Shown piece after piece: positions 2,393 through 43,246 of a stretch of 64,000 nucleotides of DNA. Location: the NCBI GenBank assembly GCA_964596525.1, contig CAZQUL010000001.1, forward strand, positions 806,509 through 870,508. The letters run 5' to 3'. The DNA comes from an uncultured Gammaproteobacteria bacterium (GTDB taxonomy: Bacteria; Patescibacteriota; Patescibacteriia; Magasanikbacterales; GWA2-37-8). The translations under genes and the position numbers were made by a program. The notes below the pieces were generated by a model. That model saw only the letters and a program-made list of their open reading frames with translations. It did no database searches and was not told the origin of the DNA. The first letter of the stretch is position 1. Each line of letters starts with the position of its first letter.

Positions 2393-2429
2393 TGTCGCCT
2401 CCAATTCCAGGTTTCCAGATTAACCAATA

Positions 2430-2595: not shown

Positions 2596-2663
2596 AAAAA
2601 ACCACCCTCTACCGAGAACAAGCACGTGTGTGCCGATCCTCGGTAGCGCGAGAGTGGTTTTCC
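2596..2663. terminator. copy 2 of the duplicated 68-nt compound hairpin terminator
   Basis: About 96% identical to 2085..2152, with two substitutions that weaken the stems. It sits 3' of the minus-strand gene 2689..3057. Confidence 0.6.
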
Positions 2664-2688
2664 TCACGCTCCCCGAGCGTGAACTCGA

Positions 2689-3057: not shown

Positions 3058-3105
3058 GGTGTGTCCTTTCGTTCCTTCGTGTGAAGGTGGGTTGAGAGAC
3101 TCATA

Positions 3106-3134
3106 ATACTATCATAACTTATCGATTTTGTCAA
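3106..3134 (-). promoter_or_regulatory. sigma70-like promoter TCTTGACAA-N17-TAGTAT
   Basis: Minus strand TTGACA, 17-nt spacer, TAGTAT, about 50 nt upstream of the 3057 start. It abuts the divergent glyQS start. Confidence 0.55.
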
Positions 3135-3150
3135 GATTTTACCTCAAAAA

Positions 3151-4560: not shown

Positions 4561-4579
4561 TCTTAATCGTAGCCCCCCT

Positions 4580-6258: not shown

Positions 6259-6807
6259 GTGCAAACTATAAAAGAAAAAATTACAGTCATTCGTAATGCT
6301 ATCCGCTACCATCGCGACCAGAAAGGCGACGATCGCTGCTGGGTCGATGATTATCTGATTTGGAAATTCCTCCCCGATTCGCCGCCCGAACCGACAACTC
6401 CGCCGCCATTCGAAAAAGCCATGGGTTGTTGTCGATCGTTTTACGATAATCGCCGTGCTGAGCAGGCGGATAGTCCTTCCGCTCAAACCGAAAACGATCC
6501 GACGAAATGGGATGAGGATATCGCAGCGATGTCCGAGACTGAACTTGCAGCTGAATTCGAAAAATTGCATGCCGCTCTGCGCGCGCATCGTGACGTGAAC
6601 GGCCGTGAACGAACGCTCGATGACGATCGGGCGTTATACGACGTATTACCCGAAAAAATTCCAGCTGATTTCCGTTTGCCGAACAAGCCTGAGTTCCTTG
6701 ATGGCATAAAACCTGGTTGCGGCTGCCCCAATTTTTGGAAGAGCCATGAAAATTGCCCGACGGACAAACATGATTTGCATCGCTGGGGACCGTGTCCTGT
6801 AGCCTAA
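6259..6807 (+). CDS. hypothetical Cys-rich protein
   Basis: GTG start immediately after a stop. Contains MGCCRSF and a C-terminal GCGCPNFW...CPTD...GPCP cluster. Confidence 0.5.
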   Translation: MQTIKEKITVIRNAIRYHRDQKGDDRCWVDDYLIWKFLPDSPPEPTTPPPFEKAMGCCRSFYDNRRAEQADSPSAQTENDPTKWDEDIAAMSETELAAEFEKLHAALRAHRDVNGRERTLDDDRALYDVLPEKIPADFRLPNKPEFLDGIKPGCGCPNFWKSHENCPTDKHDLHRWGPCPVA

Positions 6808-6811
6808 AGCT

Positions 6812-7228
6812 ATGTCCGCCGATCTTCATTTCTCCGGAAAAATAACCCAAAAAGCGCTCGTTATCAAAGATGATAAAGTGCTTATCGTCCGCGAGGCCCG
6901 CTACGACGGAAAATGGGAATTACCCGGTGGGCGATTGCATAACGAAGAATCCTTGTTCCAAGGTTTCCATCGAGAAATACAAGAAGAGCTAGGTGTTGAA
7001 GTTATCGATGAGCGGCTGTGCTACTCAGAACAATTCCGTGAAAAACATAGCGGAAGTTGGTGTGTGCTCATGGCATACACCTGCCGTCTAAAGAATTCCG
7101 ATCAAGAATTTTCGCTTGCTAAAGAAGAAGTTGCGGAGTGTAAGTGGATTACTGTTTCCGAACTTAACGATCAGCCGATTTACACCCACTCATTGCATGC
7201 TCTTCAAAATTATTTTTCACACAGTTAG
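6812..7228 (+). CDS. NUDIX hydrolase
   Basis: Nudix box GGRLHNEESLFQGFHREIQEELGVEV (GX5EX7REUXEEXGU). Confidence 0.85.
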   Translation: MSADLHFSGKITQKALVIKDDKVLIVREARYDGKWELPGGRLHNEESLFQGFHREIQEELGVEVIDERLCYSEQFREKHSGSWCVLMAYTCRLKNSDQEFSLAKEEVAECKWITVSELNDQPIYTHSLHALQNYFSHS

Positions 7229-7259: not shown

Positions 7260-8564
7260 ATGCACCGCGTTGCCAAACTCAAAAACGGATTAACCCTCAT
7301 TACCGTACCTGTTAAAGGTACGTCTGCGACAACGGTTCTCTGCATGTTTCCGGTCGGTTCTCGTTTTGAAGAACCGCGCACCAACGGTGCGGCCCATTTT
7401 GTGGAGCACATGTTGTTCAAAGGCACGACTAAACGGCCAACGTCGCAGGATATTACCCGTACGTTCGATGCTGTAGGCGCACAGTACAACGCGTTTACGA
7501 GCAAGGAGTACACGGGTTACTACGTAAAAGTTGCGGCTGAAAAACAGAGTTTAGCATTCGAGGTTTTGGCCGACATGCTCGCCAACTCAGTATTTAAGCT
7601 CGAAGAAGTGGAAAAAGAAAAAGGCGCGATTGTGGAAGAACTCCGCATGTACAAAGACAATCCGCTTATGGATATCGATGATACGTTCGAGTCCCTCGTC
7701 TTTGAAGGTCATCCGCTCGGGTGGAATATCGGCGGGAGCGAAGATACAGTGCGCGGCATGTCGCGTGAAGATCTAGTGTCGTATTATCAGGCGCATTATT
7801 CGCCGCGGACCATGGTGCTCGTCGTCGCTGGTGCGGTCGACTCTAAGAAACTGGCCTCGTATGTCAAGCACTTCCTGGCCTACGAAGCGCCGCGTGACGC
7901 AGCCACGTTTTCGTGGTATAAAGCCCATACTACTCCCTTTGACGTACCACCCGTTCTACCACTCGAAAAACGCGTTACGGTAAAAGAAAAAAAGGTGGAT
8001 CAGCTGCAGCTCATGCTCGGCTTTCCTGCGTTTGAGCACACGCACGCTGACCGTTATGCACTATCTGTTTTGTCTACGGTACTTGGCGGCGGTATGAGCT
8101 CGCGATTGTTTACCGAGGTGCGTGAACGTCGCGGGTTGGCGTATATGGTGAAAACCGACACGACGAGCTACCGTGAAACCGGTGTCTTTTCCGTTAAAGC
8201 TGGTTTGGATCCGGCGCGCGTTCCCGAAGCCTTACGCGTCATCGTTCAGGAGCTTAAAAAGATCGTTGCCGAACCGGTAAGCACCCAAGAACTCAAAGAC
8301 GCCCAAAATTATCTTTTGGGTCATACTGCGCTCCAGCTCGAAGACAGTTTCAACCAGGCTAATTGGTTCGCGGAACGTTTCCTCTTTATGAAACGTTTGG
8401 ATACGTATCAGGATGTTGCCAAAAAGATCAAGAAAGTGACGATTAAGGACGTGCACAAAGTGGCAAAACAGGTTATCCGCTTTAACGAGTTGCGGCTGGC
8501 AGCGATTGGTGGGCTCTCTAAAGAAGTTGTGATTAAAGCGGCAAAAGATGCCCTTGCCGAGTAA
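7260..8564 (+). CDS. M16 family zinc peptidase (pitrilysin-like)
   Basis: HFVEHMLFKG inverted zinc motif (HxxEH). 441-aa ORF trimmed to the first ATG. Confidence 0.8.
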   Translation: MHRVAKLKNGLTLITVPVKGTSATTVLCMFPVGSRFEEPRTNGAAHFVEHMLFKGTTKRPTSQDITRTFDAVGAQYNAFTSKEYTGYYVKVAAEKQSLAFEVLADMLANSVFKLEEVEKEKGAIVEELRMYKDNPLMDIDDTFESLVFEGHPLGWNIGGSEDTVRGMSREDLVSYYQAHYSPRTMVLVVAGAVDSKKLASYVKHFLAYEAPRDAATFSWYKAHTTPFDVPPVLPLEKRVTVKEKKVDQLQLMLGFPAFEHTHADRYALSVLSTVLGGGMSSRLFTEVRERRGLAYMVKTDTTSYRETGVFSVKAGLDPARVPEALRVIVQELKKIVAEPVSTQELKDAQNYLLGHTALQLEDSFNQANWFAERFLFMKRLDTYQDVAKKIKKVTIKDVHKVAKQVIRFNELRLAAIGGLSKEVVIKAAKDALAE

Positions 8565-8574
8565 TTTTTAACGA

Positions 8575-9336
8575 ATGTTTACGCTTATGAAACCCTACTT
8601 TTTGGCTAACTGGAAAATGTACTTGTCGTACGATGAAAGCGTTGCTCTGGCCGAGCAGGTACGCCAAGATGTCTCTTCGAATGGTCCCGAGACTGTCGTT
8701 TTTCCGTCGGCGCTCGCTGGGTATCGCGTGGCGCGGATTATGGAAGGCAGTAGCGTTAAATGCGGAGCGCAGAATGTGGCCTGGGTAGAGAAAGGCGCGT
8801 ATACCGGCGAGGTTTCGCCGCACATGTACCGCGATGCCGGATTTACCCACGCGCTCGTCGGCCACTCGGAGCGCCGGCATGTTTTTCATGAAACCGAACA
8901 AGAGCTCCGTCAGAAGCTAGAAGCGGTGGTGGGTGTAGGCCTGACGCCGGTCGTATGCGTAGGTGAAACTGTGGCGGAGCGTGAAGCTGGACAGGCGCTT
9001 AGTGTTGTGGAGGCGCAGATCCGCCGCTTGGTTGAAGGCCTCACTCTTCCCAAAGATGCCCCTTTTATGGTAGCTTACGAACCGGTTTGGGCTATTGCGA
9101 GCGGCGCGCCCTGTTCGCCGTCGGATGCTCAAGCGGTGCAGACGATGCTTCGCAACGTGCTGTCCCAAACCGTAGGCGAGGCTTCTGTTGCCGTGCTTTA
9201 CGGCGGCAGCGTGGATGCGTCTAATGTGCGCTCGTATATCGACGAAGCCGGTTTTGACGGCGTACTGGTCGGTAGCGCCTCGGTGAAACGTGAAAGTTTT
9301 CAAGCGTTGTCTCAAGCTCTAGCACATCGCTCCTAG
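8575..9336 (+). CDS. tpiA: triosephosphate isomerase
   Basis: Motifs ANWKM, VGHSERR and AYEPVWAIASG. Confidence 0.9.
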   Translation: MFTLMKPYFLANWKMYLSYDESVALAEQVRQDVSSNGPETVVFPSALAGYRVARIMEGSSVKCGAQNVAWVEKGAYTGEVSPHMYRDAGFTHALVGHSERRHVFHETEQELRQKLEAVVGVGLTPVVCVGETVAEREAGQALSVVEAQIRRLVEGLTLPKDAPFMVAYEPVWAIASGAPCSPSDAQAVQTMLRNVLSQTVGEASVAVLYGGSVDASNVRSYIDEAGFDGVLVGSASVKRESFQALSQALAHRS

Positions 9337-9341
9337 TTTGT

Positions 9342-10259
9342 ATGAACGGATGGTGGTTTATTATCCCCGCAGTTTTTTCCGGCGCTTCCCTCATCGTGGT
9401 GGTGGTTGTTATCATTCGCAAATTTCCGCAAGCCGCCTTGCTTGACGTTAACCACTTACCCGAAGAATGGCAGGCGCAGCGCAAAAAAGAAATCCTGGCC
9501 CGCCGCATGGCCGAAGAGGGGAAAGAACAACTCGAAAAACTCAGCCGGCGCCTGTCGCCGCTTAAACGTTTGTGGGCCAAAACCCAGTTCTTTTTCCGTG
9601 TCTACGTAGGCCGTGTTAATCGTATGTGGGCCGAAGAGCGTTCACGTGAACTAGGCGATGGTCCGGTAGCGTTGCGTGCTTTGGAGCGCAAACGCAAAGT
9701 TGCCGAACTTGTCAAAGAAGCCTACGAACACATGCGCGTCGAAAAGTATGACTTGGCGGAAGGGCTTTTTATCGCTGCTATCAAAATTGATCCGCGTAAC
9801 GTGGAAGCATACCGCGGTTTGGGTGAAACGTACGTTGCTAAACAGTCGTTTGCCGAAGCTCGTGAAACATTCCGCTTTTTGCTTAAACTTACCCCAGACG
9901 ATGATGCGGTTATGGTACGCCTCGCCACCATTGCAGAAGAGCAAGGCGAACTCGACGAAGCGATTGGGTATTACCAGCAGGCTTTGGTGGTTAACGACAC
10001 CCAGGCGGCCCGCTTTTTCCACCTAGCCGAACTTCTTCTTCGGGTCAAGCAGCCGATCGTCGCTAAAGAAGCATTGTTATCCGCAGTTGAGCTCGAAGCC
10101 CGCAATCCTAAATATCTTGACTTGTTGACAGAGGCTGCTATACTATGCAAAGACAAAGAACTTTCTGAACGGGCGCTCAAGGAACTTCGCCTTGTAAACC
10201 CGGACAACCAGAAGCTCGATGTGTTTAAAAGTCGCATTGCGGATCTGGATCGTTCTTAA
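9342..10259 (+). CDS. TPR-repeat protein with N-terminal membrane anchor
   Basis: N-terminal TM helix WWFIIPAVFSGASLIVVVVVII followed by TPR-like repeats (AYRGLGETYVAKQSFAEA...). Confidence 0.7.
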   Translation: MNGWWFIIPAVFSGASLIVVVVVIIRKFPQAALLDVNHLPEEWQAQRKKEILARRMAEEGKEQLEKLSRRLSPLKRLWAKTQFFFRVYVGRVNRMWAEERSRELGDGPVALRALERKRKVAELVKEAYEHMRVEKYDLAEGLFIAAIKIDPRNVEAYRGLGETYVAKQSFAEARETFRFLLKLTPDDDAVMVRLATIAEEQGELDEAIGYYQQALVVNDTQAARFFHLAELLLRVKQPIVAKEALLSAVELEARNPKYLDLLTEAAILCKDKELSERALKELRLVNPDNQKLDVFKSRIADLDRS

Positions 10260-14099: not shown

Positions 14100-15731
14100 A
14101 TGAAAACTAAATTTATTTTCGTGGTCGGTGGTGTGCTTTCGGGCGTGGGTAAAGGCGTGGCTTCGGCGTCTATCGGGCGCATTCTCAAGAACCGCGGACT
14201 CGAAGTTTCGGCGATCAAGATTGATCCCTACATCAACGTCGATGCCGGCACCATGAACCCGACCGAGCATGGAGAAGTATTTGTCACCGAAGATGCCGAT
14301 GAGGCTGATCAGGACTTGGGCAATTATGAGCGCTTTTTGGATACGAATATCACCTCGGTTAACTACATGACGACTGGCCGCGTGTATCTCTCGGTCATCG
14401 AAGCCGAGCGTAAGATGGCGTATAAGGGAAAGTGTGTCGAAGTGGTACCGCACATTCCTATGGAAGTAGTGGATCGCATCCACAAAGCTGCCAAGTTTAG
14501 CAAAGCCGATGTGATGGTGATTGAAATCGGCGGCACGGTAGGGGAATACCAAAACATCCTTTTCCTCGAAGCGGCGCGCATGATGAAGCTCAAAAACCCC
14601 GACGACGTGCTCTTTGTGCTCGTGAGCTACATGCCCATCCCCGGCCATTTAGGCGAGATGAAAACTAAGCCCACACAAGTTGCAGCCCGCACGCTTAATG
14701 CGAGCGGTATCCAGCCCGACATTATTTTGGCCCGCGGTAAAACCGAACTCGACAAACCGCGCCGCGAAAAACTCGCGCTTTTCTGCGGTTTGCGCTCCGA
14801 AGACGAGGTCATTTCCGCGCCAGATGTGGAAAGCATTTACCTTGTGCCCGAAGTGCTTGAACGCCAGAATTTGAGCAAACTCATTGCTAAAAAACTCAAG
14901 CTTCGTCTCAAGGGCGACAAAAGCGCCGAGTGGAACCAGTTTGTTGGCAAGATGCAGCGGGCGACTAAGCCGCTCAAGATCGCGGTGGTGGGCAAGTATT
15001 TCGGTACTGGTAATTTCACGCTTGCGGATTCGTATATCTCGGTTATCGAAGCTATTAAGCATGCTGCGTGGAGCCAGGGGGCAAAACCGGAATTGGCGTG
15101 GATTGATGCTGAGGATTTCGAAAGCGGCAAGCGCAGTGTTGCCGATCTTAAAGATTTCGCGGCCATTGTAGTGCCGGGAGGATTCGGATCGCGCGGTATT
15201 GAAGGAATCATCAAGGCCATCCGTTTCGCGCGCGAAGAAAAGATTCCGTATCTCGGCTTGTGTTATGGTATGCAGCTTGCTTGTATCGAATTCGTGCGCG
15301 ACGTGCTCGGAAAGAAAACCGCGCATACCGTGGAGGTAGACGCCGACACGGCCGATCCGGTAGTGCATATCAATCCGTTCCAAAAAGATAACGTGCGCCA
15401 CAAGCGTTATGGCGGTACGATGCGCCTGGGTGCGTACCGCTGTACGATTGAAAAGGGGAGTAAGGCGGCCAAGGCATATGGGGAACTTGAAATTTCCGAA
15501 CGCCATCGCCATCGCTACGAATTCAACAACGACTATCGCAGCGCCGTAGAAGAAAAGGGATTGCGCTGCGTGGGCATTAATCCAGAAAGCAATCTCGTGG
15601 AAATCGTCGAGCTTGCGGATCATCCGTATTTCGTCGGTGTGCAGTTTCACCCTGAGTTTAAATCCCGTCCGCTTCATCCGCACCCGTTGTTTGTCGGCCT
15701 TGTTAAAGCCGGAATGAAAGGTAAGGAATAG
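14100..15731 (+). CDS. pyrG: CTP synthase
   Basis: 543 aa. N-terminal synthetase domain and C-terminal glutaminase domain (GLCYGMQLA). Confidence 0.95.
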   Translation: MKTKFIFVVGGVLSGVGKGVASASIGRILKNRGLEVSAIKIDPYINVDAGTMNPTEHGEVFVTEDADEADQDLGNYERFLDTNITSVNYMTTGRVYLSVIEAERKMAYKGKCVEVVPHIPMEVVDRIHKAAKFSKADVMVIEIGGTVGEYQNILFLEAARMMKLKNPDDVLFVLVSYMPIPGHLGEMKTKPTQVAARTLNASGIQPDIILARGKTELDKPRREKLALFCGLRSEDEVISAPDVESIYLVPEVLERQNLSKLIAKKLKLRLKGDKSAEWNQFVGKMQRATKPLKIAVVGKYFGTGNFTLADSYISVIEAIKHAAWSQGAKPELAWIDAEDFESGKRSVADLKDFAAIVVPGGFGSRGIEGIIKAIRFAREEKIPYLGLCYGMQLACIEFVRDVLGKKTAHTVEVDADTADPVVHINPFQKDNVRHKRYGGTMRLGAYRCTIEKGSKAAKAYGELEISERHRHRYEFNNDYRSAVEEKGLRCVGINPESNLVEIVELADHPYFVGVQFHPEFKSRPLHPHPLFVGLVKAGMKGKE

Positions 15732-16003: not shown

Positions 16004-16208
16004 AATAAGTCTTTCAGTGTCTGAGCGTTCGTTACAAGGAATGAAGAGAGGTTCATGAACATGGGTCCCACGCTGTTTTTTTGAAGTTTGAGCTTCAAAT
16101 AAGCGGTGTGGGAAGAGGATGGTAGCTTCAATAACAGTTGATGCGCCGCTTTTAACCCATTGTTCACACGACCCCAGTACTGACCCGACCGAGAACAAGG
16201 AGTGTACC

Positions 16209-17111
16209 ATGACCAAGCCCTCGAAGACCCCCGTGAAGCCCGGTAAGACCTCGACCAAGTCCCCGGCTGGCAAGGCCCCCGTGGCCAAGCCCGCCGCCAA
16301 GCCGAGCAAGAAGCCTGCGAAGCCGGTCACCGATGACGATGGCGAAGAGACCGTCTCCAAGGGTACCCTGACCACCGTGCTCAGCGGCATCGCGAACCTG
16401 CTCAAGAAGAAGCCGCAGGACATGGAGCCGGTCGAGCTGCTCGAGGCCTTCTGCGACAAGGCGACCCGCACCCGTGGCCTCGTCGACTGCGCCCGCGCCA
16501 TCTTCGGCGACTCCCCCTGCATCGTCATCAACCGCAACGGCCTGCCCAACAAGAGCAAGACGCTCGCGCGCTACAACGAGGAGAGCAAGCGGCGCGTGTA
16601 CGGCGGGCTCGAGGTCGTCTCGATCGAAGTCGCCCTCGGCAAGATCACCACCCGTAGTCCCTACGACTACCGGATGGAGCTCGACAACGAGGGCATCGAC
16701 GAGGACGGCATCGCCATGCCGGAGAGTTCCGAGGTGCGCGTGTTCATCCGGTTCATGGTCAACCAGCGGATGATGGGCCTCTCCGACGGACAGGTCGACC
16801 CCCAGCGCCGTGACGCCGTGAACCAGGCGGTCGAGAACTACCCCGAGGTGCCCCGCTCCTACGAGCAGGCCAAGATCCTGTTCGAGGGTGCCCGCGATCG
16901 CAACACGCCCGAGTACCGCAAGGCGGTCGAGGATCTCACGGCCGTCACCACGCAGTTCAGCGGCAGCTCGCAGTCCGGCCACGGCCACAACACCGGCTAC
17001 GGCTTCTCGAACACGGGCTACGGCCAGAACGGTGGCTACGCCGGCGACCGCCCGCTCGGCCAGTACAGCGACGGCCCGCGCAGCCCGCGCCGCGACTTCG
17101 GTCGCGACTAG
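16209..17111 (+). CDS. high-GC hypothetical protein with Lys/Ala/Pro-rich N-terminal tail and Gly/Tyr-rich C-terminus
   Basis: ATG preceded by AAGGAG. N-terminus KPSKTPVKPGKTSTKSPAGKAPVAKPAAKPSKKPAKP, C-terminus GHGHNTGYGFSNTGYGQNGGYAGD. GC at third codon positions is near saturation. The ORF-track start at 16119 lies in AT-rich leader DNA and was rejected. Confidence 0.7.
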   Translation: MTKPSKTPVKPGKTSTKSPAGKAPVAKPAAKPSKKPAKPVTDDDGEETVSKGTLTTVLSGIANLLKKKPQDMEPVELLEAFCDKATRTRGLVDCARAIFGDSPCIVINRNGLPNKSKTLARYNEESKRRVYGGLEVVSIEVALGKITTRSPYDYRMELDNEGIDEDGIAMPESSEVRVFIRFMVNQRMMGLSDGQVDPQRRDAVNQAVENYPEVPRSYEQAKILFEGARDRNTPEYRKAVEDLTAVTTQFSGSSQSGHGHNTGYGFSNTGYGQNGGYAGDRPLGQYSDGPRSPRRDFGRD

Positions 17112-17403
17112 AGGCTTCCGGCCTCGCGCGTCGGCGCCGTAACCTTGAGTAGGCGCTAGAGCCGTCCTGTCCAAGGTTTCTCCCTCGTACCTTCCCTCCC
17201 TTCATTCCTCCTGCAGAGATCGTCGCTCCGGTTCCCGGTTGCGGCGGCTCTCTGCCTTTCCCCCAAGAGCTTATGAAGCTCATGAGCACTTGGGTAGAAA
17301 GTTCAATCGTTTTTCTACTACATTGTTCGTTGCCAATCAGTGCTTTTCGCGAAGCTTTTTTTGTTTACGCCGCTTCCACCAACCTGAACGAAAGGAGACG
17401 TCG

Positions 17404-18408
17404 ATGTCCTTCCAGCCCCCGAACCAGCCGCGTGCCTTCGTCTGCCCCGCGCCCCGGAGCGTCGACAACCGCATCTTCGCCCCCGTCATCAAAGCCAATG
17501 GCCTCCTCATGGCCGTGGCCTACCAGCGTGACGGCGAAGCACCCACGCTCGTCAACCTGTTCCGTGAGCCTGGGCGCGACGACGGCCGCATCCTCGTGCC
17601 GCTCCCGCCCGAGGGGGTGAACGTCAGCCTGCTCATCTTCAACCCCACCTCGAGTGCCATCGGCATCCTCGGTGCGGTCGAAGGCGTGTCGATCGTCAAC
17701 CCGAAGCAGGGCGTGTTCGAGCCCACGACCGCCTCCTGCCTGGTCATCAACCCGGGCATGGAAGGCGAAATCGCGGGCTACGTGAACGTCGCGGCGAACG
17801 GCGTGGCAGCGCTCGCGCGATGGAGGCTCCAGCCGGTCGGCTATGGCACCACGGTCGGCGAAGCCACGAAGAAGACCACGGATCTGCGCGGTCAGTGCGA
17901 CCTGTATGTCCGTACCGCCTACCGGGACTTCATGCGCCAGCCCATGGACGACGGCTATATGCGGGATATCGCCTCATCATCCGGCAACCTCGGGTACGAT
18001 CCGGGGCTCGTCGCGGCGCGTCCCTCGCGTCGTGCGGAGGACCTGGATGAGCCGAACTGGGACCATGACAAGCTGCGCAGCCCCAGCAAGGGTACGCGCA
18101 ACGCTCCGGATCGGGGTGGTACCGTACAGGTCGGCATCGGCACCGACGTCACGCAGGAGATTGAGGATCTCCAGCCGGTCTCGTTCTGCCTCGGCGAGAC
18201 AAGCCCGCTCTGCCAGCTCTGGATCGTGGCGCGCTCCGAAGTGCTGCGAAGTTGCATCGAAGGACATCTGGGCCACCGGGCCTGGAACTGGGAGTGTACT
18301 TCCGAGCTGGCCTGGCAGCACCTGAACTCGCTCACCCCGCCGCCTGCCCCGGTCGTCCCCGGCGTGCCCACTGCCCTGAAGGGCTGGGGGTCTGCGCGCC
18401 AGCCCTAG
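17404..18408 (+). CDS. high-GC hypothetical protein (334 aa)
   Basis: ATG preceded by AAAGGAGACG. The composition switches to GC-rich exactly at the start codon. No recognised motif. Confidence 0.65.
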   Translation: MSFQPPNQPRAFVCPAPRSVDNRIFAPVIKANGLLMAVAYQRDGEAPTLVNLFREPGRDDGRILVPLPPEGVNVSLLIFNPTSSAIGILGAVEGVSIVNPKQGVFEPTTASCLVINPGMEGEIAGYVNVAANGVAALARWRLQPVGYGTTVGEATKKTTDLRGQCDLYVRTAYRDFMRQPMDDGYMRDIASSSGNLGYDPGLVAARPSRRAEDLDEPNWDHDKLRSPSKGTRNAPDRGGTVQVGIGTDVTQEIEDLQPVSFCLGETSPLCQLWIVARSEVLRSCIEGHLGHRAWNWECTSELAWQHLNSLTPPPAPVVPGVPTALKGWGSARQP

Positions 18409-18432
18409 CGCGAATCTGAGGCGCGCGCTTTG

Positions 18433-18468
18433 AGCGCCGTTATCCTGTAAAGGAAGCGGCGCTTTTTT
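18433..18468 (+). terminator. candidate rho-independent terminator
   Basis: Stem AGCGCCG/CGGCGCT with a 17-nt loop followed by TTTTTT. Confidence 0.4.
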
Positions 18469-18637
18469 GATAGTAAAGATGATGCAAAAACATTGACTTT
18501 TTTATATATGTACGCTATTCTACGCCGTTAAACTTTCCACCTAGGAATATACTTCGTATTTCTTGGCGGTACGTTTACCGACCCGTTTTTAACGGGATCT
18601 TTCTCTGACAACACAACGCATACGAAGGAGGATTACG

Positions 18638-19921
18638 ATGGCGACCCAGACAGTTCTTGATCCGACCGCTTATCTCGGTTTTGCTAACGGTCTGCCGCTC
18701 TTTCGCGAGCACCGCCAGGCGCTCATCGCCGCGATTGGAGGTCTGGCACACCAGTTTTTGCTTTCGCCCGATGAAGAGCGATCGACGGTAAGAGAGTTGG
18801 TACCGGAAGGTGCCTGGTATCAGCATGTGCCCCGCGATCCGCGTCATGTCGACGATCTCTTGATCAACAAAGTCGGCAACAGGGTGGCGCGGGCGATGAT
18901 TGGCGAGCTACTTGCTCGCTTCAACGCGCTCACTACCGTGTGTCCGCTCGGGCATCTGGGTGTTGGTATCGACAATGGCTCCTGGACAGTGCGCGCCACC
19001 GGAGAGCGTTGCCTCGTGCCCACCTGCCGAGAGACCATCTTGTGGGAGCCTCCGCCGGTTTCGCACTACGACTGGGTCGACGACTGTCTGGTTTCCCTGG
19101 TGGTCCGCGATCGGGTGATTGGCGGGTGCAACGTGCCGATCCATATCGAAAATATCGAGCGGCTCGTCAACAGCATGGGCGGATTGCGTCCTGAGGTTGA
19201 ACAGGTGCTCTCAATTGCGACGCTCCAGAACCGGGGGCTTACCCTTAAGAAGCTTCTCGGTCAGCTGTGGCGTACGCACGCGGTGCGCTATGGCCATCAG
19301 CCGCTCAAGGTTCTCTGGTCGTTCACCCGGCATAATCCCGAATCAGTGGCATATGTGGTGGACGAGCTCAAGAGCGCGGCGTTTGCGGCTGTAACACGCC
19401 AGGCGTCGAGTGGTCCGCCGCCCGCTCCTACATCAGTAGCTCCGCGCAAGAAGCGCGAGAAGCTCTCGGTGGTGGCTATTGCCGCGGCTGACGAAGGCAT
19501 CGATCTGTGGATTCTCCAAGACGTGGCCAAAAGCTTAAAGACCCTCAAGGACTACTCAAGAATTACCGTGTGGACTACGGCGAACTGCACCTTTCCTCAC
19601 CTTATGGCAGAGTGCCTCCCGCCGCAGCTCCAGAACGCCGATGTTGTCTTGCTCTTTTTGAGCGATCGGTTCTTTAAGAGTCCCTGCGGTAAAGAAGCGG
19701 AGCGAGTTCTCCACGGCTTCTGCGACGGACTTTTCCCGTTCCGTATCTACTTGGTGAAGATAAACACCTACTCTTCGGAGTTGGCGTATAACTTGCCAGC
19801 GTTGGTGGATAGCAAGGGCTCGCGGCCGAGTGATGTCGATACGATTGTCCGCACTGCCGCTCTCAAGCTCGCCACCATTATTCCGGCCCACCTCGAGATC
19901 TTTGATCGCGAAAACGCCTAG
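18638..19921 (+). CDS. hypothetical protein with C-terminal TIR-like domain
   Basis: RBS GAAGGAGG. The C-terminal 150 aa read KLSVVAIAAADEG...DVVLLFLSDRFFKSPCGKEAERVL...FRIYLVKINTYSSELAYNLP. This matches the TIR beta-A/alpha-C pattern (S-x-x-[YF]-x-x-S-x-W/C-C-x-x-E). The N-terminal 270 aa are unknown and Cys-rich. GC is about 58-60%. Confidence 0.6.
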   Translation: MATQTVLDPTAYLGFANGLPLFREHRQALIAAIGGLAHQFLLSPDEERSTVRELVPEGAWYQHVPRDPRHVDDLLINKVGNRVARAMIGELLARFNALTTVCPLGHLGVGIDNGSWTVRATGERCLVPTCRETILWEPPPVSHYDWVDDCLVSLVVRDRVIGGCNVPIHIENIERLVNSMGGLRPEVEQVLSIATLQNRGLTLKKLLGQLWRTHAVRYGHQPLKVLWSFTRHNPESVAYVVDELKSAAFAAVTRQASSGPPPAPTSVAPRKKREKLSVVAIAAADEGIDLWILQDVAKSLKTLKDYSRITVWTTANCTFPHLMAECLPPQLQNADVVLLFLSDRFFKSPCGKEAERVLHGFCDGLFPFRIYLVKINTYSSELAYNLPALVDSKGSRPSDVDTIVRTAALKLATIIPAHLEIFDRENA

Positions 19922-32317: not shown

Positions 32318-34528
32318 ATGCGTGAAAGCATGCGCTTAGATCCTTCTGCGATCGGTAGGACTGATAACGCACGGCTGCCATCTCGTGAGCTTGGTGAGAT
32401 TTCCTCTGCGCCCAAACAAGAGAATGTTCTCAAAAACGAAGCAGCGCGCATGTTTGAACATGCCGATATGTATCGTTTGCCCGGGGATTCTTCGCTCACT
32501 GAAAAAGATTTTAAACGTTACTTTGAAAGTAATGCGCGGTTTGAGGAGCAGCTTTCGGAAATGTTGGTTGCGGGATTAGAAAATTCGGAAACACACGAAG
32601 CACTTTCAGCTTTCCGCATGCTTGTCCAAAAGGATTTTTTGGCTGAATATCCGGCGGTGCTTTCGTTCGTTAACCGTATGATCGAGTCTGGCGACTATGG
32701 TGCACAGCGCTTGATCCTCGATTATATTCCTGTACTCAAGCCCGAAGATAGGGGAAGGTACATTGATGAGATTTTTGAAAAAGGAAATATCGAATTACAA
32801 GAAAAGGCAGCTTCGTTTCTCAAATTTATTCCGCCTAATGAGGGTGAGAGGTTGCGTCGGAAATTAGGTCAAATCCTATGGAACTACTTGACGGAAAATC
32901 CAGCGCTCTACGAGTCACACGGTTTTCCTTTCGAGATAATAGACAATGTTCCTGAAGGCGATCGGAATAAAGCACAAGAGTATATCGCCAACTTAATCAA
33001 AGAAGCGCTCCGAGCGCCGTCATTATCGGATCGTCGGGGGTATGCATATCTCACCTGCGTGCTTCCTTCTGATATGCAGAAAAAATTCATAAACCAATAT
33101 TTTTCCGACAAGAATACCAAGCTCACCTCGTATTTTTTGCGCGAGATGGGGTATCGGAAAGAGCGAGTTGACCCTGCTTTTTTTACCGGCTTACCAGAGG
33201 TTATTGAGCGCGGACTTAACGGAGAAAATGATGATTTTGCCGAGTCCCTTTCCGATTTGATCCCCCAAGCGCCGGTCGCTAACCGAGGGCGGCTTGTCGA
33301 ACAGGCTCTTAGCTATCCGTCGCAACGAGTGCGTTCGCGCGCAGTCAGTGCCCTCCGTAGCGTCTCTTCTTCCGATCTTCCTTTGCTGGTCGATAAGTGT
33401 TTATCCTCGTCTTATAGTAAAGTGGCTTACACGGCTTTGGATCATCTCAATCGAATGGTTTCGGAAGAGAAAATTAGTCTTCAGCCGGCAGTGCGGCGCG
33501 TGGTAGAAAAAATGCTCGATTCGGACGATTATTCGGATTTTGTCGCTGGACTCGCTTCTTTTCCCCACCTTTCGCCATTCGATCAGGAATTAATGCTCGA
33601 AAAGGTTCCGAGTTTACTTGATACTTTTTTTAAAGATCCTGATATTGCTTTGCGTATTTTCAGGCATTTTCGTTTTGACGCGCTTCCGCATAATGTCTGC
33701 GCTTTGATAGACGTTCGGTTGCCGGAGCTCCTGAAAGAAGTTTTTTCTTTCCAAAACCGAGAACACTGGTCGCAAGCCTTACGGCTTATCGATCGGTTGC
33801 CGATGGTCGAAAAGGATTCGTTTTATGATCTAGCGGTAGGTACAATAAAAGAAACCTATGAATCGGGTAGTCTAAAAGACGTGGTCGCATTGCTTGGTGA
33901 ATTATCGGATGAGATGTCCTCGGCATTCGCGAAAAAACTACCTGCAATTTCGCCGGTTTTAAGCGAGTATCTCTTGAGGAAGGCCTCGCACTCTCCTTTG
34001 TATAACAAGTTTCCCGAGCCGTTCACGAAAGAGGATTTTGCTAAAGACGGTTCGACAACTACGTTACTCGATCGTATTCCAGGTCTCGACAATGTATCAC
34101 TGCGCGAACGGGTTATTATCCGACATATTGGGCCGCAATACTACGCCGTCTGGAAAAAGGCTTATGAAGCGATTGATTGCTGGAAACGGCACGGCTTTAA
34201 CTATGTTCCGGTCGAACCGATCGTCGGCGTTTCGATGCCAGCACTAAATAAGCCGGTTGATGTATACACAAGAGTGATAAACGGGCCATCGGCCGCTCTA
34301 TGGCTCGAGGACGGTGGGTTATATCAAGGCCGTATTGACCAACAGATCCATAGCATCAAGCTTGCTTTAAGTGAACTTGGTATCATCCATGGCCATGATT
34401 ACCATAAAGGCAATTTCGTCGTGTGTTTCGAACGTGATGGCGCTTCGGGTAAACCGATCCTCACCGCGCCGCCACGAGTGTATGTGATCGATTTTGATCA
34501 AGCTACGTCTATTAAAGAAAAGAAATAA
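32318..34528 (+). CDS. hypothetical protein with helical-repeat N-terminal region and C-terminal protein-kinase-like domain
   Basis: The C-terminus HGHDYHKGNFVVCF...PRVYVIDFDQATS resembles a kinase catalytic loop (HxD..N) and a DFG-like (IDFD) segment. The N-terminal 550 aa look like HEAT/ARM repeats. Confidence 0.6.
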   Translation: MRESMRLDPSAIGRTDNARLPSRELGEISSAPKQENVLKNEAARMFEHADMYRLPGDSSLTEKDFKRYFESNARFEEQLSEMLVAGLENSETHEALSAFRMLVQKDFLAEYPAVLSFVNRMIESGDYGAQRLILDYIPVLKPEDRGRYIDEIFEKGNIELQEKAASFLKFIPPNEGERLRRKLGQILWNYLTENPALYESHGFPFEIIDNVPEGDRNKAQEYIANLIKEALRAPSLSDRRGYAYLTCVLPSDMQKKFINQYFSDKNTKLTSYFLREMGYRKERVDPAFFTGLPEVIERGLNGENDDFAESLSDLIPQAPVANRGRLVEQALSYPSQRVRSRAVSALRSVSSSDLPLLVDKCLSSSYSKVAYTALDHLNRMVSEEKISLQPAVRRVVEKMLDSDDYSDFVAGLASFPHLSPFDQELMLEKVPSLLDTFFKDPDIALRIFRHFRFDALPHNVCALIDVRLPELLKEVFSFQNREHWSQALRLIDRLPMVEKDSFYDLAVGTIKETYESGSLKDVVALLGELSDEMSSAFAKKLPAISPVLSEYLLRKASHSPLYNKFPEPFTKEDFAKDGSTTTLLDRIPGLDNVSLRERVIIRHIGPQYYAVWKKAYEAIDCWKRHGFNYVPVEPIVGVSMPALNKPVDVYTRVINGPSAALWLEDGGLYQGRIDQQIHSIKLALSELGIIHGHDYHKGNFVVCFERDGASGKPILTAPPRVYVIDFDQATSIKEKK

Positions 34529-34537
34529 GAACTCGAA

Positions 34538-34861
34538 ATGCCCAAAATTACCACCTTCAAAAATGATTCCTTCAAGAAAAGCCGCGGCGGTTATTCACGT
34601 TGGTTGTCTTTAAGGTGTGAAAAATGTCAGACTCCGCTCTTGACGTATCAGAAAGACGGGCCGGGAATTCTGAAGCGGTTGTATGTGGATCGAATCGTTT
34701 TTCCGACTGATTTCGATCCAAAGAAAAATTTAGTATGCGCTGGATGCGATGTGCTTATTGGCATTCTTATCGTATACGAGAAAGAAAATCGGCCAGCGTA
34801 CCGTTTATTTGCGGAGGCGATTGAAAAGAAAATTATCAAAAGCTGTACTCTACCGAAATAA
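34538..34861 (+). CDS. zinc-ribbon hypothetical protein
   Basis: CEKC...CAGC pair (CxxC-N46-CxxC). Confidence 0.5.
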   Translation: MPKITTFKNDSFKKSRGGYSRWLSLRCEKCQTPLLTYQKDGPGILKRLYVDRIVFPTDFDPKKNLVCAGCDVLIGILIVYEKENRPAYRLFAEAIEKKIIKSCTLPK

Positions 34862-35884: not shown

Positions 35885-35909
35885 AAAGGAAGTAGGTCAT
35901 ACTTCCTTT
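35885..35909. terminator. bidirectional terminator
   Basis: AAAGGAAGTA-ggtca-TACTTCCTTT between convergent genes. Confidence 0.7.
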
Positions 35910-35931: not shown

Positions 35932-37365
35932 TCAGCGCAGCACGATGCTCATGGCGATGATCCAGAGCACGTACACGATGACGGTGCGCAGCATGAGCGG
36001 GATCGCCGCTCGCCTCCAGGCGCTTGATTCGACCTGGAGGGCTGCGCGAATCGGGAAGTTGGGAATGTTCCCGGGTGGGGTGAGCGTGCCGCCGAAGAGC
36101 GCCGCGAGCATGATGGCGATGATGATGATCGTCGCCGCCGCCATGCTCAGCTTCCCGTTCGCGATGAGCGGCACTACCAAGGCCGCGAAGACCTTGGTGA
36201 TGAGTGCATTGTCGGCGTACCCCGATGCCGGCGCTGCCACCAGAAAGAAGAGCGCGGCGACGGCCAGCGTGGGCAGGTCGAGGGGGATGAACCCTGCAGC
36301 CCAGCTCACGAAGGGCGCCCCCACGGTTCCGATCACGTCGAGAGCGGCGAGAAGGGCGGCGAGGACGATCGGCTCCCACTTGGCCTTGGTGCGGTCCTCG
36401 AGCACCTTGTGCGGCAGATTGTCGTGGCGAGGGAAGCGGCTGCGCGAGATGAAGTAGTTGGCGATGCCCGTTGCCGCATCGACGAGGGCGAGAAGGATGT
36501 TCTCGCTGATCGCGATGTGGGCGGTGATCATGATGCCGAGGTGCAGGAGGGGCAGTGCCATCTTGTCCGAGAAGCCGAAGGGCTTGAGGATCGGGTACCG
36601 AGCCTCTTCCTTCATGAGGCTGAGCGCGCCCCGACTCGTGAAGAGCACGTAGATGAAGCAGGGGAGCCCGACGAGGGCCAGATAGGTCCCCAGCCCCCAG
36701 CCAAAGCTCGTCTGGAGCACACCCCAGACGATGATGACCGGGGGTGCGACGTACGGCAGGATGCCGTTGCCGCTACCGATGACGGCAGCGAGCTTCACCG
36801 CGAGCTCCGCGCGCTTGTCGGAGCGCACGCGCTCCTCGAGATACTTGACGAGCACCACGCTCGCCGCTGGCCCCATGAGGCTGGCCATGAGGCCACCTCC
36901 GACGAGAACGAGCCATAGGCCGCCGACATACTCGAGTGCCCGCAGGATGGGCTGCGTGTGGGGGGCGGCGATGCGAGCGGCCGCGAGAATGCCGAGCAGT
37001 GCCAGGCAGTTGTACACGACGGACGCATGGATGAGGAAGTGGCCCGTCGAGATGAAGACCGCGCCAAGCGCGATCACGCCGACGGCGATGCCGGCGTACT
37101 CACCCTCATCGGTGGTCTTGTGCAGAAAACGGATGAGGGACTTGTGCTCGCGCAGCCAGGTGCGAGGGCGGCCGATGATCATGAGGTCCGCCTTGGCGAA
37201 CCCGAGCATGGCAGCGATCGCGGCCAGGAGGAGAAGTCCTCCGCTTACGACCGCGCTTCCATGCGTGAGCTGCACGGCGAGAAACGCTACGAGGCACAGA
37301 ATCCCGAGATAGCACTCGAGGATTGCCTCCTTAACTCCAACCAGTGCATTGTCCTTGTGCGACAT
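35932..37365 (-). CDS. high-GC polytopic ion-transporter-like membrane protein (477 aa)
   Basis: At least 10 predicted TM helices. Resembles the NhaD/ArsB/CitMHS-type ion transporter superfamily by topology only. RBS AGGGAGGG. GC is about 63-65% with high GC3, and the flanks are AT-rich. Confidence 0.7.
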   Translation of the reverse strand: MSHKDNALVGVKEAILECYLGILCLVAFLAVQLTHGSAVVSGGLLLLAAIAAMLGFAKADLMIIGRPRTWLREHKSLIRFLHKTTDEGEYAGIAVGVIALGAVFISTGHFLIHASVVYNCLALLGILAAARIAAPHTQPILRALEYVGGLWLVLVGGGLMASLMGPAASVVLVKYLEERVRSDKRAELAVKLAAVIGSGNGILPYVAPPVIIVWGVLQTSFGWGLGTYLALVGLPCFIYVLFTSRGALSLMKEEARYPILKPFGFSDKMALPLLHLGIMITAHIAISENILLALVDAATGIANYFISRSRFPRHDNLPHKVLEDRTKAKWEPIVLAALLAALDVIGTVGAPFVSWAAGFIPLDLPTLAVAALFFLVAAPASGYADNALITKVFAALVVPLIANGKLSMAAATIIIIAIMLAALFGGTLTPPGNIPNFPIRAALQVESSAWRRAAIPLMLRTVIVYVLWIIAMSIVLR

Positions 37366-37445
37366 CGTTTTTCCCTCCCTTTATTCATGTTGTCAATGTC
37401 CGATGCGTTCCTTCGCCTGCGTTTTTTTCACAAGCGAATCGCAGT

Positions 37446-37474
37446 AGTTTATGTCTTTTTTCCTTCTTTGTCAA
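37446..37474 (-). promoter_or_regulatory. sigma70-like promoter CTCTTGACAA-N17-TAAACT for the transporter gene
   Basis: Minus strand TTGACA, 17-nt spacer, TAAACT, about 80 nt upstream of the 37365 ATG. Confidence 0.5.
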
Positions 37475-37504
37475 GAGCAAAATCCCTTTTATAATTCGAC
37501 GTGC

Positions 37505-37541
37505 AACAAAAAAACAGACCGGGAAAAGGCCTGTTTTTTTG
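37505..37541. terminator. bidirectional terminator after atpC
   Basis: AAAAAAACAGACC-gggaaaa-GGCCTGTTTTTTTG. Confidence 0.6.
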
Positions 37542-37544
37542 TGT

Positions 37545-39403: not shown

Positions 39404-40324
39404 TTAGGTCGCTACTTCTACCGCAGCGCTACCGGCGGCAAGTTCGCAGAGCTGTTGCGTAATGGCAGCCTGGCGTCCCTTGTTGTAAAGAAGTGTCAGG
39501 CTTTTTACCACTTCGTCGGCAGCTTCGGTGGCCTTTTTCATCGCCACCATGCGGCTCGAGTATTCCGAGGCCTTAAACTCGATGAATCCCTGCAGAAAGA
39601 GCATGTGGGCCAGCTGGCGGGCAAGCACTTCAATGACGCGCTCGGTGTCTGGTTCAAAGATTATTTCCTGATCAAGAGCCTCCGGTTTTTTGGCTGACGG
39701 GGTTTTGAGACCGTATTCTTTCCAGCGCAGCTGGTCGGCGATCATTTCTGGTGAGAAGGGGAGGTACTGCTTAATGTTCGGAATCGTGGTGAACGGATTG
39801 ACGTAGTGGGTTGAAACAAGGAAAACCTCGCGCACGTCCGAGCGGTTCCAGAGTTCGAGAATGCTGTCGATAACTTGGAGCGCTTCAAAGGAGTCGGTTT
39901 TTTCCGTTATTTCGGAAAAGTGCCGTTCTACTGGGTAGCCGAGGCGCAAAGCCGTTTCGTACCCTTTTCGGCCGATCGTGAACAAGATCCGTTTATTGAA
40001 CGGCGTCTCTTTCCACGCGGCCGACGAGAAGAGTGTATCGATCATGCGCAGGTTGAGCGAGCCGCACAATCCTTTGTCTGAGGTAATGAAGACGAAGACG
40101 CGTTTGTCGGCTTCGAGCGGGGTCTGCGCGTACGTGAGCTCGCTTACCGACCCGCCGGCCATGCGTAATGCTTCGACAAGACTCCAGGCATAGGTACGGG
40201 CAGCAACCGCTCGTTTTTGGAAGGTCTTCATTTTGTTGGCCGCAACAAGCTGCATGGCTTGCGTGATTTTTTGCGTATTCTTCGTGGCCTGGATCTGTTT
40301 TTTGGTTTCGGCAAGAAAGGCCAT
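39404..40324 (-). CDS. atpG: F1 ATP synthase gamma subunit
   Basis: Trimmed to MAFLAETKKQIQATKNTQKITQAM, the canonical gamma N-terminus. The longer ORF-track start would overlap atpA. Confidence 0.85.
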   Translation of the reverse strand: MAFLAETKKQIQATKNTQKITQAMQLVAANKMKTFQKRAVAARTYAWSLVEALRMAGGSVSELTYAQTPLEADKRVFVFITSDKGLCGSLNLRMIDTLFSSAAWKETPFNKRILFTIGRKGYETALRLGYPVERHFSEITEKTDSFEALQVIDSILELWNRSDVREVFLVSTHYVNPFTTIPNIKQYLPFSPEMIADQLRWKEYGLKTPSAKKPEALDQEIIFEPDTERVIEVLARQLAHMLFLQGFIEFKASEYSSRMVAMKKATEAADEVVKSLTLLYNKGRQAAITQQLCELAAGSAAVEVAT

Positions 40325-40334
40325 ACGAAGGGCG

Positions 40335-41846
40335 TTAAACAGCGAAGAAAGTTTCGGCGGCTGCCTTGAATCCGGCGGTGATTTCGTCGGAAAGGGCTTT
40401 GTCACGCTCGATGGCGCTGACGGTGCCGGCGTGCGATGCCTTGAAGAATTCGAGGAACGCTTCGAGTTTAGCCTGCACATCGGCGACCGGCAAGGCGTCG
40501 AGGTAGCCGTTCATGGCGGTCCAGAGGATTACGGCTTCTTCCGCGAGGGAACGTGGGCGTAACTGCTTTTGTTTGAGGGCTTCAACGAGGCGTTCGCCGC
40601 GGATAAGCTGCTTTTTCGATGTCGCGTCGAGTTCGGAAGCGAACTGCGAGAAGGCTGCCAATTCGTAGTATTGGGCCAAATCGAGCTTGATCGTACCGGA
40701 AAGTTTTTTGATGATCTTGGTTTGCGCTGCCGAACCGACGCGCGATACCGAAATACCGACGTTGATGGCTGGACGGATGCCTTTATAGAATAAGCCGGTT
40801 TCAAGGAAGATCTGACCGTCGGTAATGGAAATTACGTTAGTCGGAACGTAGGCTGAAATGTCACCAGCCTGCGTTTCGATGATCGGGAGAGCGGTGATAG
40901 ATCCGCCGCCGTTCGCGGTGTTGAGTTTGACGGCGCGCTCCAAAAGGCGGGAATGGATATAGAATACATCGCCAGGGAATGCTTCGCGACCCGGCGGTTT
41001 GCGCAAAAGAAGCGACAGTTCGCGGTAAGCGACAGCGTGTTTGGAGAGATCGTCGTAGATGACGAGCACGTCTTTACCTTGTTTGAGGAAAAATTCTGCG
41101 ATAGCAACGCCAGCGTACGGGGCCAGGAATTGCATGACCGCCGGGTCGGACGCCGAAGACGAAACGATCGTCGTGTAGTCCATAGCGCCGGCATCGCTGA
41201 GCGTTTTGATGACCTGAGCGGTTTTGGAATCACGCTGGCCGACAGCTACGTACACGCAGAGCATGTTCTGTCCTTTTTGATTGATGATAGTGTCGAGCGC
41301 GATCGCGGTTTTACCGGTCTGGCGGTCACCGATAATGAGTTCGCGCTGGCCGCGGCCGACTGGAATGAGCGCGTCGATCGCCAAGACGCCGGTTTGCACG
41401 GGCTGTGAAACCGACTCGCGGGCCATAACGCCCGGGGCGATGGTTTCGAGCGGCATGGCGGTGCCTTTTTCGAGTGCTTTGCCGCCGTCGAGTGCTTTGC
41501 CGACCGGTGAAACGACACGGCCCAAAATCTGCTCGCTTACTTTGATAGAGAGCTGTTTGCCGGTCGAGACTGCCGTGAGACCGACGCGCAAATCCGAGGA
41601 GTTGGTCATAGCAACAGCCACATTGATATCGCGGCCGATTTGCACAACGAGCGCTTCGATGCCAATCTCTTCGATTACCACCACTTCACCCATGGCCAGA
41701 CCGGAGATATTGGCAATCTCGATGATATTGTCTTTGGCGGAAACAATAAGGCCGGCTTTTTTAGGAGCCGTAACGTCTACCTTAATCCGCTCGATCGCTT
41801 TATCGATCGAGGAGAGGAGCTGTTTTACATGATCGTTCTGAGCCAT
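40335..41846 (-). CDS. atpA: F1 ATP synthase alpha subunit
   Basis: Walker A GDRQTGKT, 503 aa. Confidence 0.95.
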
Positions 41847-43015: not shown

Positions 43016-43246
43016 TTAGACGACAAACAGGATGATGAGCGAGATAACGAGGCAGTAAATACCGGTTGATTCACAGATAGCCATGGCTACGACCATGTTC
43101 GGAATGATGTTGTCTTTGACAGCCGGGTTGCGACCGATAGCTTCCATGGCCTTCGACGCCACATTACCTTCGGCGATAGCCGGAGCGATAGAACCGATGC
43201 CCATGCAAATACCTGCAGCGAGCACTTTGAATGCAATTGGATCCAT
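43016..43246 (-). CDS. atpE: Fo ATP synthase c subunit
   Basis: 76-aa two-helix hairpin with the conserved carboxylate (E) in helix 2. Confidence 0.9.
   Translation of the reverse strand: MDPIAFKVLAAGICMGIGSIAPAIAEGNVASKAMEAIGRNPAVKDNIIPNMVVAMAICESTGIYCLVISLIILFVV

Follow-up and report, generated by a model that had tools for sequence, protein, structure and literature searches.

A long-resident ion-transporter-superfamily gene of anomalous codon usage beside a predicted Na+-type ATP synthase operon in an uncultured bacterium

A 64,000-nucleotide stretch of contig CAZQUL010000001.1 (assembly GCA_964596525.1, positions 806,509 to 870,508), referred to below in its whole length as the window, carries beside an F1Fo ATP synthase operon a 477-residue open reading frame (ORF) whose base composition sets it sharply apart from its surroundings, and the locus raises the question of whether this gene was brought in from elsewhere and of what its product transports. 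An initial annotation, made from the letters and translated reading frames alone, had described it as a laterally acquired polytopic transporter, inserted as a single gene with its native promoter between two terminators. In this report we confirm that the reading frame is a real gene and show that its product is a known kind of carrier, a DUF1646-like member of the ion transporter (IT) superfamily, from a very sparsely sampled branch. The gene is not a recent arrival, and its place downstream of the ATP synthase operon predates the split of this genome from at least two related lineages. Of the reading as a whole, namely that of a long-resident, functional IT-superfamily transporter that is transcribed alone and is linked to a Na+ cycle beside a Na+-type ATP synthase, we are about half persuaded. 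The features on which the argument turns are the following:

35932..37365, minus strand: coding sequence (CDS) of the elevator-type (IT superfamily, DUF1646-like) secondary transporter, as predicted from the ORF, Pfam, AlphaFold2 and Foldseek; ATG start, 477 amino acids
37545..44112, minus strand: F1Fo ATP synthase operon atpB-E-F-H-A-G-D-C, immediately upstream, assigned from ORFs and Pfam
43016..43246, minus strand: ATP synthase c-subunit with a complete two-carboxylate Na+ motif (E26, E-S-T-G-I-Y), assigned from its translation and PDB matches

The target protein is hydrophobic (grand average of hydropathy, GRAVY, +0.89), with many hydrophobic segments, and its AlphaFold2 model, computed from the family alignment (predicted local distance difference test, pLDDT, 92.8; predicted template modelling score, pTM, 0.90), is all-helical, with two helical hairpins at residues 182-221 and 408-443, helix breaks at 165-166 and 384-385, and about 11 membrane helices, in keeping with the 10 or more transmembrane helices expected at the outset. 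The top Foldseek matches of this model are VcINDY and other DASS carriers, NaS1, Pho90, plant DiT, TRAP-M, ArsB and YdaH, with TM-scores mostly of 0.45-0.64, and the probability reaches 1.0 for DASS, Pho90, TRAP-M, ArsB and AbgT structures, with nearly the full length covered. All 44 PDB matches at E <= 1e-3 are to DASS, Pho90, DiT, TRAP-M, ArsB or similar carriers, the YdaH (AbgT) match falling just above this cut-off. The two re-entrant helical hairpins and the broken helices of the model thus correspond to those of the solved IT-superfamily members.

Profile matches lead to the same superfamily. Pfam returns for the target a single marginal match, to DUF1646 (PF07854; 23.8 bits versus a gathering cutoff of 21.4, E = 3.6e-5), and NCBIfam returns none, whereas a scan of 32 family members individually matched DUF1646 in 17, CitMHS in 7 and Na_H_antiport_3 in 6. 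We take DUF1646, Na_H_antiport_3 (PF07399) and CitMHS (PF03600) to belong to one Pfam IT clan. What speaks against a closer assignment is that the DUF1646 match is confined to residues 340-470, the C-terminal third of the protein, and to profile positions 236-345 of 347; by its sequence, the target is a marginal and partial DUF1646 member. On the strength of the model and the profiles, the protein is predicted to be an elevator-type secondary transporter of the IT superfamily, in a very rare branch allied to DUF1646 and putative Na+/H+ antiporter families, so that its initial placement among the NhaD, ArsB, CitMHS and DASS families was right at the level of the superfamily. The rarity of the branch is evident from the searches: of 5.8 billion clustered proteins, only three are close homologs, at 57-61% identity; an exhaustive profile search retrieved 38 representatives (clusters at 50% identity) among 1.84 billion; and no donor-like sequence above 61% identity was found among 15 billion proteins. 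Searches with the family profile gave no match in genome contigs and none against the sequences of solved structures, and an AtpG profile run on the genome contigs retrieved a single, unrelated match from Solirubrobacteraceae.

The family leaves residues G197, G199, D385, N386, A387, N433, N436 and W450 invariant, and on the model these columns gather at the hairpins and broken helices, with G197 and G199 at the tip of the first hairpin, D385-N386-A387 at the helix break, and N433 and N436 at the tip of the second hairpin. The corresponding family motifs are GSG(N/G)G, ADNAL and PxNxPNF, and an ion site may be formed by the invariant Asp-Asn of the broken helix together with the Asn residues at the second hairpin tip. 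The ratio of nonsynonymous to synonymous substitution rates (dN/dS) between the orthologs at two of the homologous loci, L002 and L004, is 0.10; the gene is under purifying selection and is functional. DASS carriers (VcINDY, NaCT and NaS1 among them) are elevator-type carriers with Ser-Asn-Thr (SNT) motifs at both hairpin tips. The target resembles them in fold over nearly its full length (Foldseek E ~1e-8, probability 1.0, TM-score 0.55-0.64), including the two hairpins and the broken helices, but it shares only 11-16% sequence identity with them, has no match to Pfam Na_sulph_symp, and carries GSGNG and PPGNIPNF instead of SNT at its hairpin tips, and it does not qualify as a DASS member. 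The likeness to DUF1646, Na_H_antiport_3 and CitMHS includes the DUF1646 gathering score being passed and a polytopic protein of roughly 450-480 residues, while the partial profile match and the tiny size of the branch, with its 38 clusters at 50% identity, set it apart from DUF1646. An 880-residue protein at another locus, L046 (6483-9125), lies between atpC and the transporter homolog there; it has no Pfam match, and near its C-terminus it reads ...SAYADNVAA... and, some 60 residues on, ...GNGPNF..., echoing ADNAL and PxNxPNF, such that it may contain a half-transporter-like domain.

The question of arrival is answered by position. Immediately upstream of the target lie atpC, atpD, atpG and atpA, and downstream of it a convergent Q_salvage gene (DUF2419, PF10343; queuosine salvage), these neighbours being those named in the initial annotation. 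At locus L001, the AtpD of which is 88% identical to that of the window, a 61%-identical homolog follows atpC directly and in the same orientation; in the genome that contributes both L007 and L046 (AtpD 82%, AtpA 71%), a 38%-identical homolog lies 3.5 kb past atpC on the same strand; and at the distant L019 (AtpD 66%, AtpA 53%), a 39%-identical homolog is likewise found 3' of atpC. The identities to the window of the transporter and of AtpC run in step (61 versus 58% for L001, 38 versus 40% for L007), and the AT-rich non-coding flanks of the target are homologous to those of its orthologs. No convincing repeats bracket the target, the flanking repeats I5 and I10 being judged chance matches; no mobility gene or tRNA gene stands at its edges, the nearest tRNA genes being 10.3 kb and 55.2 kb away; and the plasmid, phage and IMG/VR collections contain no homolog of it. 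Held against what marks a genomic island, the target thus shows deviating composition and codon usage, without absence from the syntenic position in relatives and without signatures of mobility. From this we infer vertical inheritance of the transporter.

Several observations weigh against so simple a history. The gene 3' of the transporter differs between the window and L001, and the distances between transporters clash with the atp tree: the transporters of L007 and L019 are 49% identical and those of the window and L007 39%, versus AtpA identities of 71% between the window and L007 and of 53% between L007 and L019. These identities are incongruent, and therefore a transfer, or else a strong shift in rate, must have occurred somewhere. 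A recurrent neighbour other than the atp genes was sought among 79 flanking ORFs, and none emerged. At L019, a small ORF of about 73 residues (6650-6870), hydrophobic by eye, lies between atpC and the transporter homolog. The genomes of L002 and L004 are 84% identical in DNA, and their synteny stops just past the transporter terminator.

As for what is transported, the neighbouring operon offers a first pointer. The c-subunit (...AIAEGNV...AICESTGIYCLV...) is matched most closely in the PDB by four entries for Na+-specific rings, from Acetobacterium woodii, Ilyobacter tartaricus and Fusobacterium nucleatum, and upon alignment its E26 corresponds to Glu32 and its E-S-T-G-I-Y to Glu65, Ser66, Thr67 and Tyr70. 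It thereby contains the entire ligand set of the two-carboxylate Na+ site, which comprises Gln/Glu32, Glu65, Ser66, Thr67 and Tyr70 (PMC3692424). The identical motif (E26, ESTGIY) is present in L001 and L046, and Na+ coupling is the prediction for the adjacent ATP synthase. The operon is in this respect like the Na+-translocating F1Fo ATP synthases of the Fusobacterium nucleatum type, both in its full ligand set and in its top PDB matches, but the likeness concerns the operon and not the transporter, and the prediction of ion specificity is made from the motif alone. The second pointer comes from the literature on the nearest family: the Na+-I riboswitch was named from DUF1646 genes, which high Na+ switches on through this riboswitch (PMC9337991), and the target shares with them a circumstantial link to Na+ by virtue of its Na+-type ATP synthase neighbour. 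Lastly, in L002 (6449-7813 with 8001-9425) and in L004 (3-659 with 850-2283), the ortholog is divergently paired with a Na_H_Exchanger gene of the cation/proton antiporter (CPA) type.

Because the adjacent ATP synthase is predicted to be Na+-coupled, DUF1646 genes answer to Na+ riboswitches, and orthologs are paired with Na_H_Exchanger genes in L002 and L004, a role in a Na+ cycle is the most likely function of the transporter, which would be a Na+/H+ (cation/proton) antiporter or else a carrier coupled to Na+; the Na+ substrate and the direction of transport are what we infer from this setting. In the mechanism that we propose, the gene would be transcribed alone, from a sigma-70-like promoter situated between the atpC terminator and a terminator of its own, and the carrier would work beside a Na+-pumping or Na+-driven ATPase in a Na+ cycle. 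A candidate function, that of a Na+-cycle carrier, can now be offered for a branch of uncharacterised DUF1646-like transporters, and Na+-based energetics is indicated in a bacterial lineage of small genomes, in which a two-carboxylate Na+ c-ring would have a dedicated carrier alongside. The window and the related loci include compact housekeeping genes as well as genes for large surface proteins and for a type IV secretion system (T4SS) coupling protein, a repertoire that would be compatible with an ultra-small, host-associated bacterium.

The transporter gene forms a monocistronic unit, equipped with a promoter and terminators of its own, as the following elements support:

37373..37379, minus strand: Shine-Dalgarno-like GGGAGGG, 7 nucleotides 5' of the ATG, read from the sequence
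37446..37474, minus strand: sigma-70-like promoter TTGACA-N17-TAAACT, scan score 10/12
37404..37443, minus strand: hairpin in the 5' untranslated region (5'UTR), opening with the conserved CGATTCG, 4-5 nucleotides past the -10 box (-16.6 kcal/mol, z = -2.4)
35885..35909, minus strand: intrinsic-terminator-like hairpin AAAGGAAGTA-N5-TACTTCCTTT, 3' of the transporter, from scan and fold (~-11 kcal/mol)
37506..37542, no strand assigned: strong bidirectional terminator between atpC and the transporter promoter (dG -20.4 kcal/mol, z = -4.9)

The promoter, at the 10/12 score, is the one proposed in the initial annotation; its match to the consensus is by itself not significant (4 sites versus 2.0 +/- 1.4 in shuffles), and its standing derives from the recurrence of TTGAC[AG]-N16/17-TAnnnT at the equivalent place 5' of the three closest homologs (L001, L002 and L004), the L001 version being TTGACA-N17-TAAAAT. 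GGAGG-like motifs also precede the homologs, and CGATTCG/CG[CAG]ATC arms occur in the window, L001, L002 and L004, four sequences that make for weak evidence of a conserved hairpin. The initial description of two clean bidirectional terminators holds for one of them. The element at 37506..37542, identical to inverted repeat I7, has a 15-bp stem with an A-run on one side and a T-run on the other and folds on both strands, and a terminator of similar A-run/T-run design is present at the same place after atpC in L001. The element at 35885..35909, by contrast, has a 10-bp A/U-rich stem with 3 G-C pairs only (z ~-1.9) and a T-tract on the minus strand only, its plus-strand side continuing with GCAAAGAACG; it is a real but weak terminator, the bidirectionality of which is not clear, and its AAAGGAAGTA...TACTTCCTTT sequence is kept 3' of the L002 and L004 orthologs. 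A near-consensus promoter-like site on the plus strand (37468-37495; TTGTCA-N16-TATAAT, 11/12) overlaps the -35 region of the transporter promoter and is directed antisense into atpC, through the bidirectional terminator.

The composition of the gene is as anomalous as was first reported. Its G+C content (GC) is 64.7% (0.646, 0.439 and 0.856 at codon positions 1, 2 and 3), and the value at third positions (GC3) compares with a mean of 0.561, a standard deviation of 0.059 and a maximum of 0.703 in the 43 other genes of the window (z = 5.0). The edges of the GC-rich block are sharp and coincide with the ends of the CDS, the intergenic DNA on both sides being at 39-40% GC. The target uses AAG for 16 of 16 Lys codons, GAG for 13 of 15 Glu codons and CAG for 4 of 4 Gln codons, that is, G-ending codons in 33 of 35 cases versus 36% in the background (Fisher p ~1e-12), opposite to the host preference for AAA (0.69) and GAA (0.70) in background genes and for AAA (0.73) and GAA (0.76) in the atp genes. 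This codon usage is plainly foreign-like, which counts against long residence. Translational optimisation by the host is ruled out as its cause, because both the atp genes, which are presumably highly expressed, and the background genes prefer AAA and GAA. Antisense reading frames, the longest of 296 codons, are an expected by-product of GC3-rich coding and are shorter in the orthologs of lower GC. A second GC-rich stretch of the window (16119-19921, 59-64% GC) consists of three orphan ORFs of 330, 389 and 427 residues, with GC3 of 0.90, 0.80 and 0.68 and no Pfam match for any of them. The codon signature of this stretch equals that of the transporter (AAG 0.92, GAG 0.71, CAG 0.95), a further point against long residence of the latter; the stretch itself is the better candidate for a real foreign island.

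The anomaly recurs beyond the window. The family gene exceeds its neighbours in GC3, with all synonymous codon classes shifted, in every one of the eight host genomes looked at first:

Window: family gene GC3 0.856, neighbours 0.56
L001: family gene GC3 0.515, neighbours ~0.38
L002: family gene GC3 0.611, neighbours ~0.40
L004: family gene GC3 0.617, neighbours 0.22-0.43
L007: family gene GC3 0.849, neighbours ~0.50
L008: family gene GC3 0.736, neighbours ~0.41
L009: family gene GC3 0.491, neighbours ~0.28
L010: family gene GC3 0.811, neighbours ~0.51

The excess is also present in the further mid-GC genomes L017, L029 and L041, and negative offsets were never seen. High GC3 as a property of the whole family is ruled out by members with native composition in low-GC genomes (L016, L019-L023, L025 and others) and in GC-rich ones (L011, L035, L040). 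Nor is it a general trait of membrane proteins, the neighbouring AtpB, Na_H_Exchanger, Cation_efflux and EamA genes being at background GC3; additional synonymous constraint was likewise rejected, with a synonymous divergence (dS) between L002 and L004 of 0.62 for the target versus 0.75 for a neighbouring gene; and a common mobile element behind the GC-rich orphan genes was discarded for want of homology across the loci of different genomes. Synonymous sites are saturated, as judged from codon identity at conserved residues (0.337 observed versus 0.326 expected between the window and L001, 0.437 versus 0.449 between the window and L007), and therefore, under vertical descent, the GC3 excess is unlikely to be the remnant of one old transfer. 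Two divergent family paralogs (1758-3275, minus strand, and 3817-5271, plus strand) share the low-GC contig of L009, and only the latter has the excess (0.49 versus 0.31).

The explanation that the anomaly first suggests is that a GC-rich donor recently supplied the gene, which would have entered as a single-gene cassette, native promoter included, in the space separating atpC from the queuosine-salvage gene; we consider this explanation highly improbable. It would account for the GC3 deviation (z = 5), the G-ending codons and the unlike downstream genes of the window and L001, and natively high-GC family members do exist in the GC-rich genomes L011, L035 and L040. It is, however, largely refuted by the equal position and orientation after atpC in L001, L007/L046 and L019, and it also fails to explain why the nearest homologs, at 57-61%, all reside in low- or mid-GC genomes and why promoter, UTR and terminator have an AT-rich composition and share homology with their counterparts at the orthologs, in a setting free of insertion scars. 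A strong composition and codon anomaly and a self-contained transcription unit are what the target has in common with a classical genomic island or single-gene cassette; its conserved position, its host-like flanks and the lack of integrase, tRNA or repeat boundaries and of any mobile-element copies found are what distinguish it. The initial claim of lateral acquisition therefore survives as regards the foreign-like codon usage but not as regards a recent single-gene insertion; homologs of the same GC at the same syntenic position, named in that annotation as the finding that would tell against insertion, have largely been found, the L007 copy being at 65.1% GC and GC3 0.849 within a background of about 50% GC. 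A very strong anomaly in GC3 and codon usage did not equal recent transfer here, because relatives share the locus of the gene as well as its anomaly, which calls for caution elsewhere. An alternative that preserves the old locus is that its CDS was transferred or replaced repeatedly from a GC-rich pool, by homology-facilitated recombination with taken-up DNA, the excess being donor signal not yet erased. Large positive offsets in unrelated branches of the family (the window clade, L017, L008/L024, L010, L029 and L041), their never being negative, the incongruent transporter and atp distances, and the presence of other GC-rich orphan genes in the same genomes all favour it; yet the group of the window, L001, L002 and L004 has conserved non-coding flanks and a CDS GC3 that tracks the host background plus a positive offset, synonymous sites are saturated, GC-rich close relatives are not known for most branches, and the exchange would have to be limited exactly to the CDS, so that we consider repeated replacement unlikely, if by no means negligible. 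Such replacement and a gene-specific force are the two candidate causes of the excess. A bolder version of the latter, which we would call distinctly unlikely in its entirety, holds that, in a lineage of ultra-small genomes, the transporter is vertically inherited and linked to an ATP synthase driven by Na+, that a gene-specific force keeps its GC3 0.2-0.35 above that of the host past synonymous saturation, and that the branch is the missing Na+-cycle partner in the absence of a respiratory chain; candidate forces are synonymous-site selection setting expression or membrane insertion, and local conversion bias. Were this true, a classic signature of foreign DNA would be a kept property of a resident gene.

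The link to Na+ has its own competitor, in which the transporter is unrelated to Na+ homeostasis and carries some other solute, such as an organic anion or a metalloid, in the manner of CitMHS, DASS and ArsB, its adjacency to the atp genes being inherited order. Several observations tell for this possibility or against a Na+ function: the closest solved structures are anion carriers, for di- and tricarboxylates, sulfate and phosphate, together with ArsB; CitMHS is weakly matched in 7 of 32 relatives; DUF1646 proteins are Na+/H+ antiporters by prediction only (PMC9337991), and no substrate is known for them; and no Na+ riboswitch or other known RNA was matched in Rfam in the window (gathering threshold), in the 5' region of the target (E <= 10) or in seven homologous loci, the target thus differing from DUF1646 genes in a mode of control that is typical of them, although not obligatory. 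In addition, the c-subunit of L019 is of the H+ type (AEAIAIY, with Ile at the position of E26), and the adjacent transporter homolog is kept there. Because of this H+-type c-subunit, and because most of the family lies away from atp genes, among diverse neighbours, Na+ coupling of the transporter/ATP-synthase pair is not general. On the other side, the SNT hairpin motifs of DASS are absent and GSG(N/G)G, ADNAL and PxNxPNF stand in their place, the nearest sequence families are DUF1646, whose genes are induced via Na+ riboswitches, and Na_H_antiport_3, the atp adjacency recurs in four genomes with AtpA identity down to 53%, and the Na+/H+ exchanger pairing is found in both L002 and L004. We regard a carrier without a Na+ role as doubtful, though of appreciable probability, and retain the Na+-cycle carrier as the most likely function.

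A number of further observations concern the surroundings of the gene. Downstream of it in the window lie a 736-residue protein (32318-34528), with weak HEAT-repeat matches and a C-terminal end that is kinase-like by eye (HGHDYHKGNF...VIDFDQA), and next to it a 107-residue protein (34538-34861) with two CxxC pairs; no significant family match was obtained for either. At L002, a LOOT RNA (14188-14307, minus strand; Rfam RF03000, 81.5 bits) is located in a variable region a few kilobases from the transporter ortholog, near a rolling-circle Rep-like gene and an OLD/AAA_15-type gene. The Pfam assignments for the atp operon were taken partly from L005, a contig identical to the window. Within that operon, the mechanically called atpG ORF (39404-40480) carries 52 extra codons at its upstream end, overlapping atpA, and a conserved N-terminus, MAFLAETKKQ..., common to L001, indicates 40324 as the true start.

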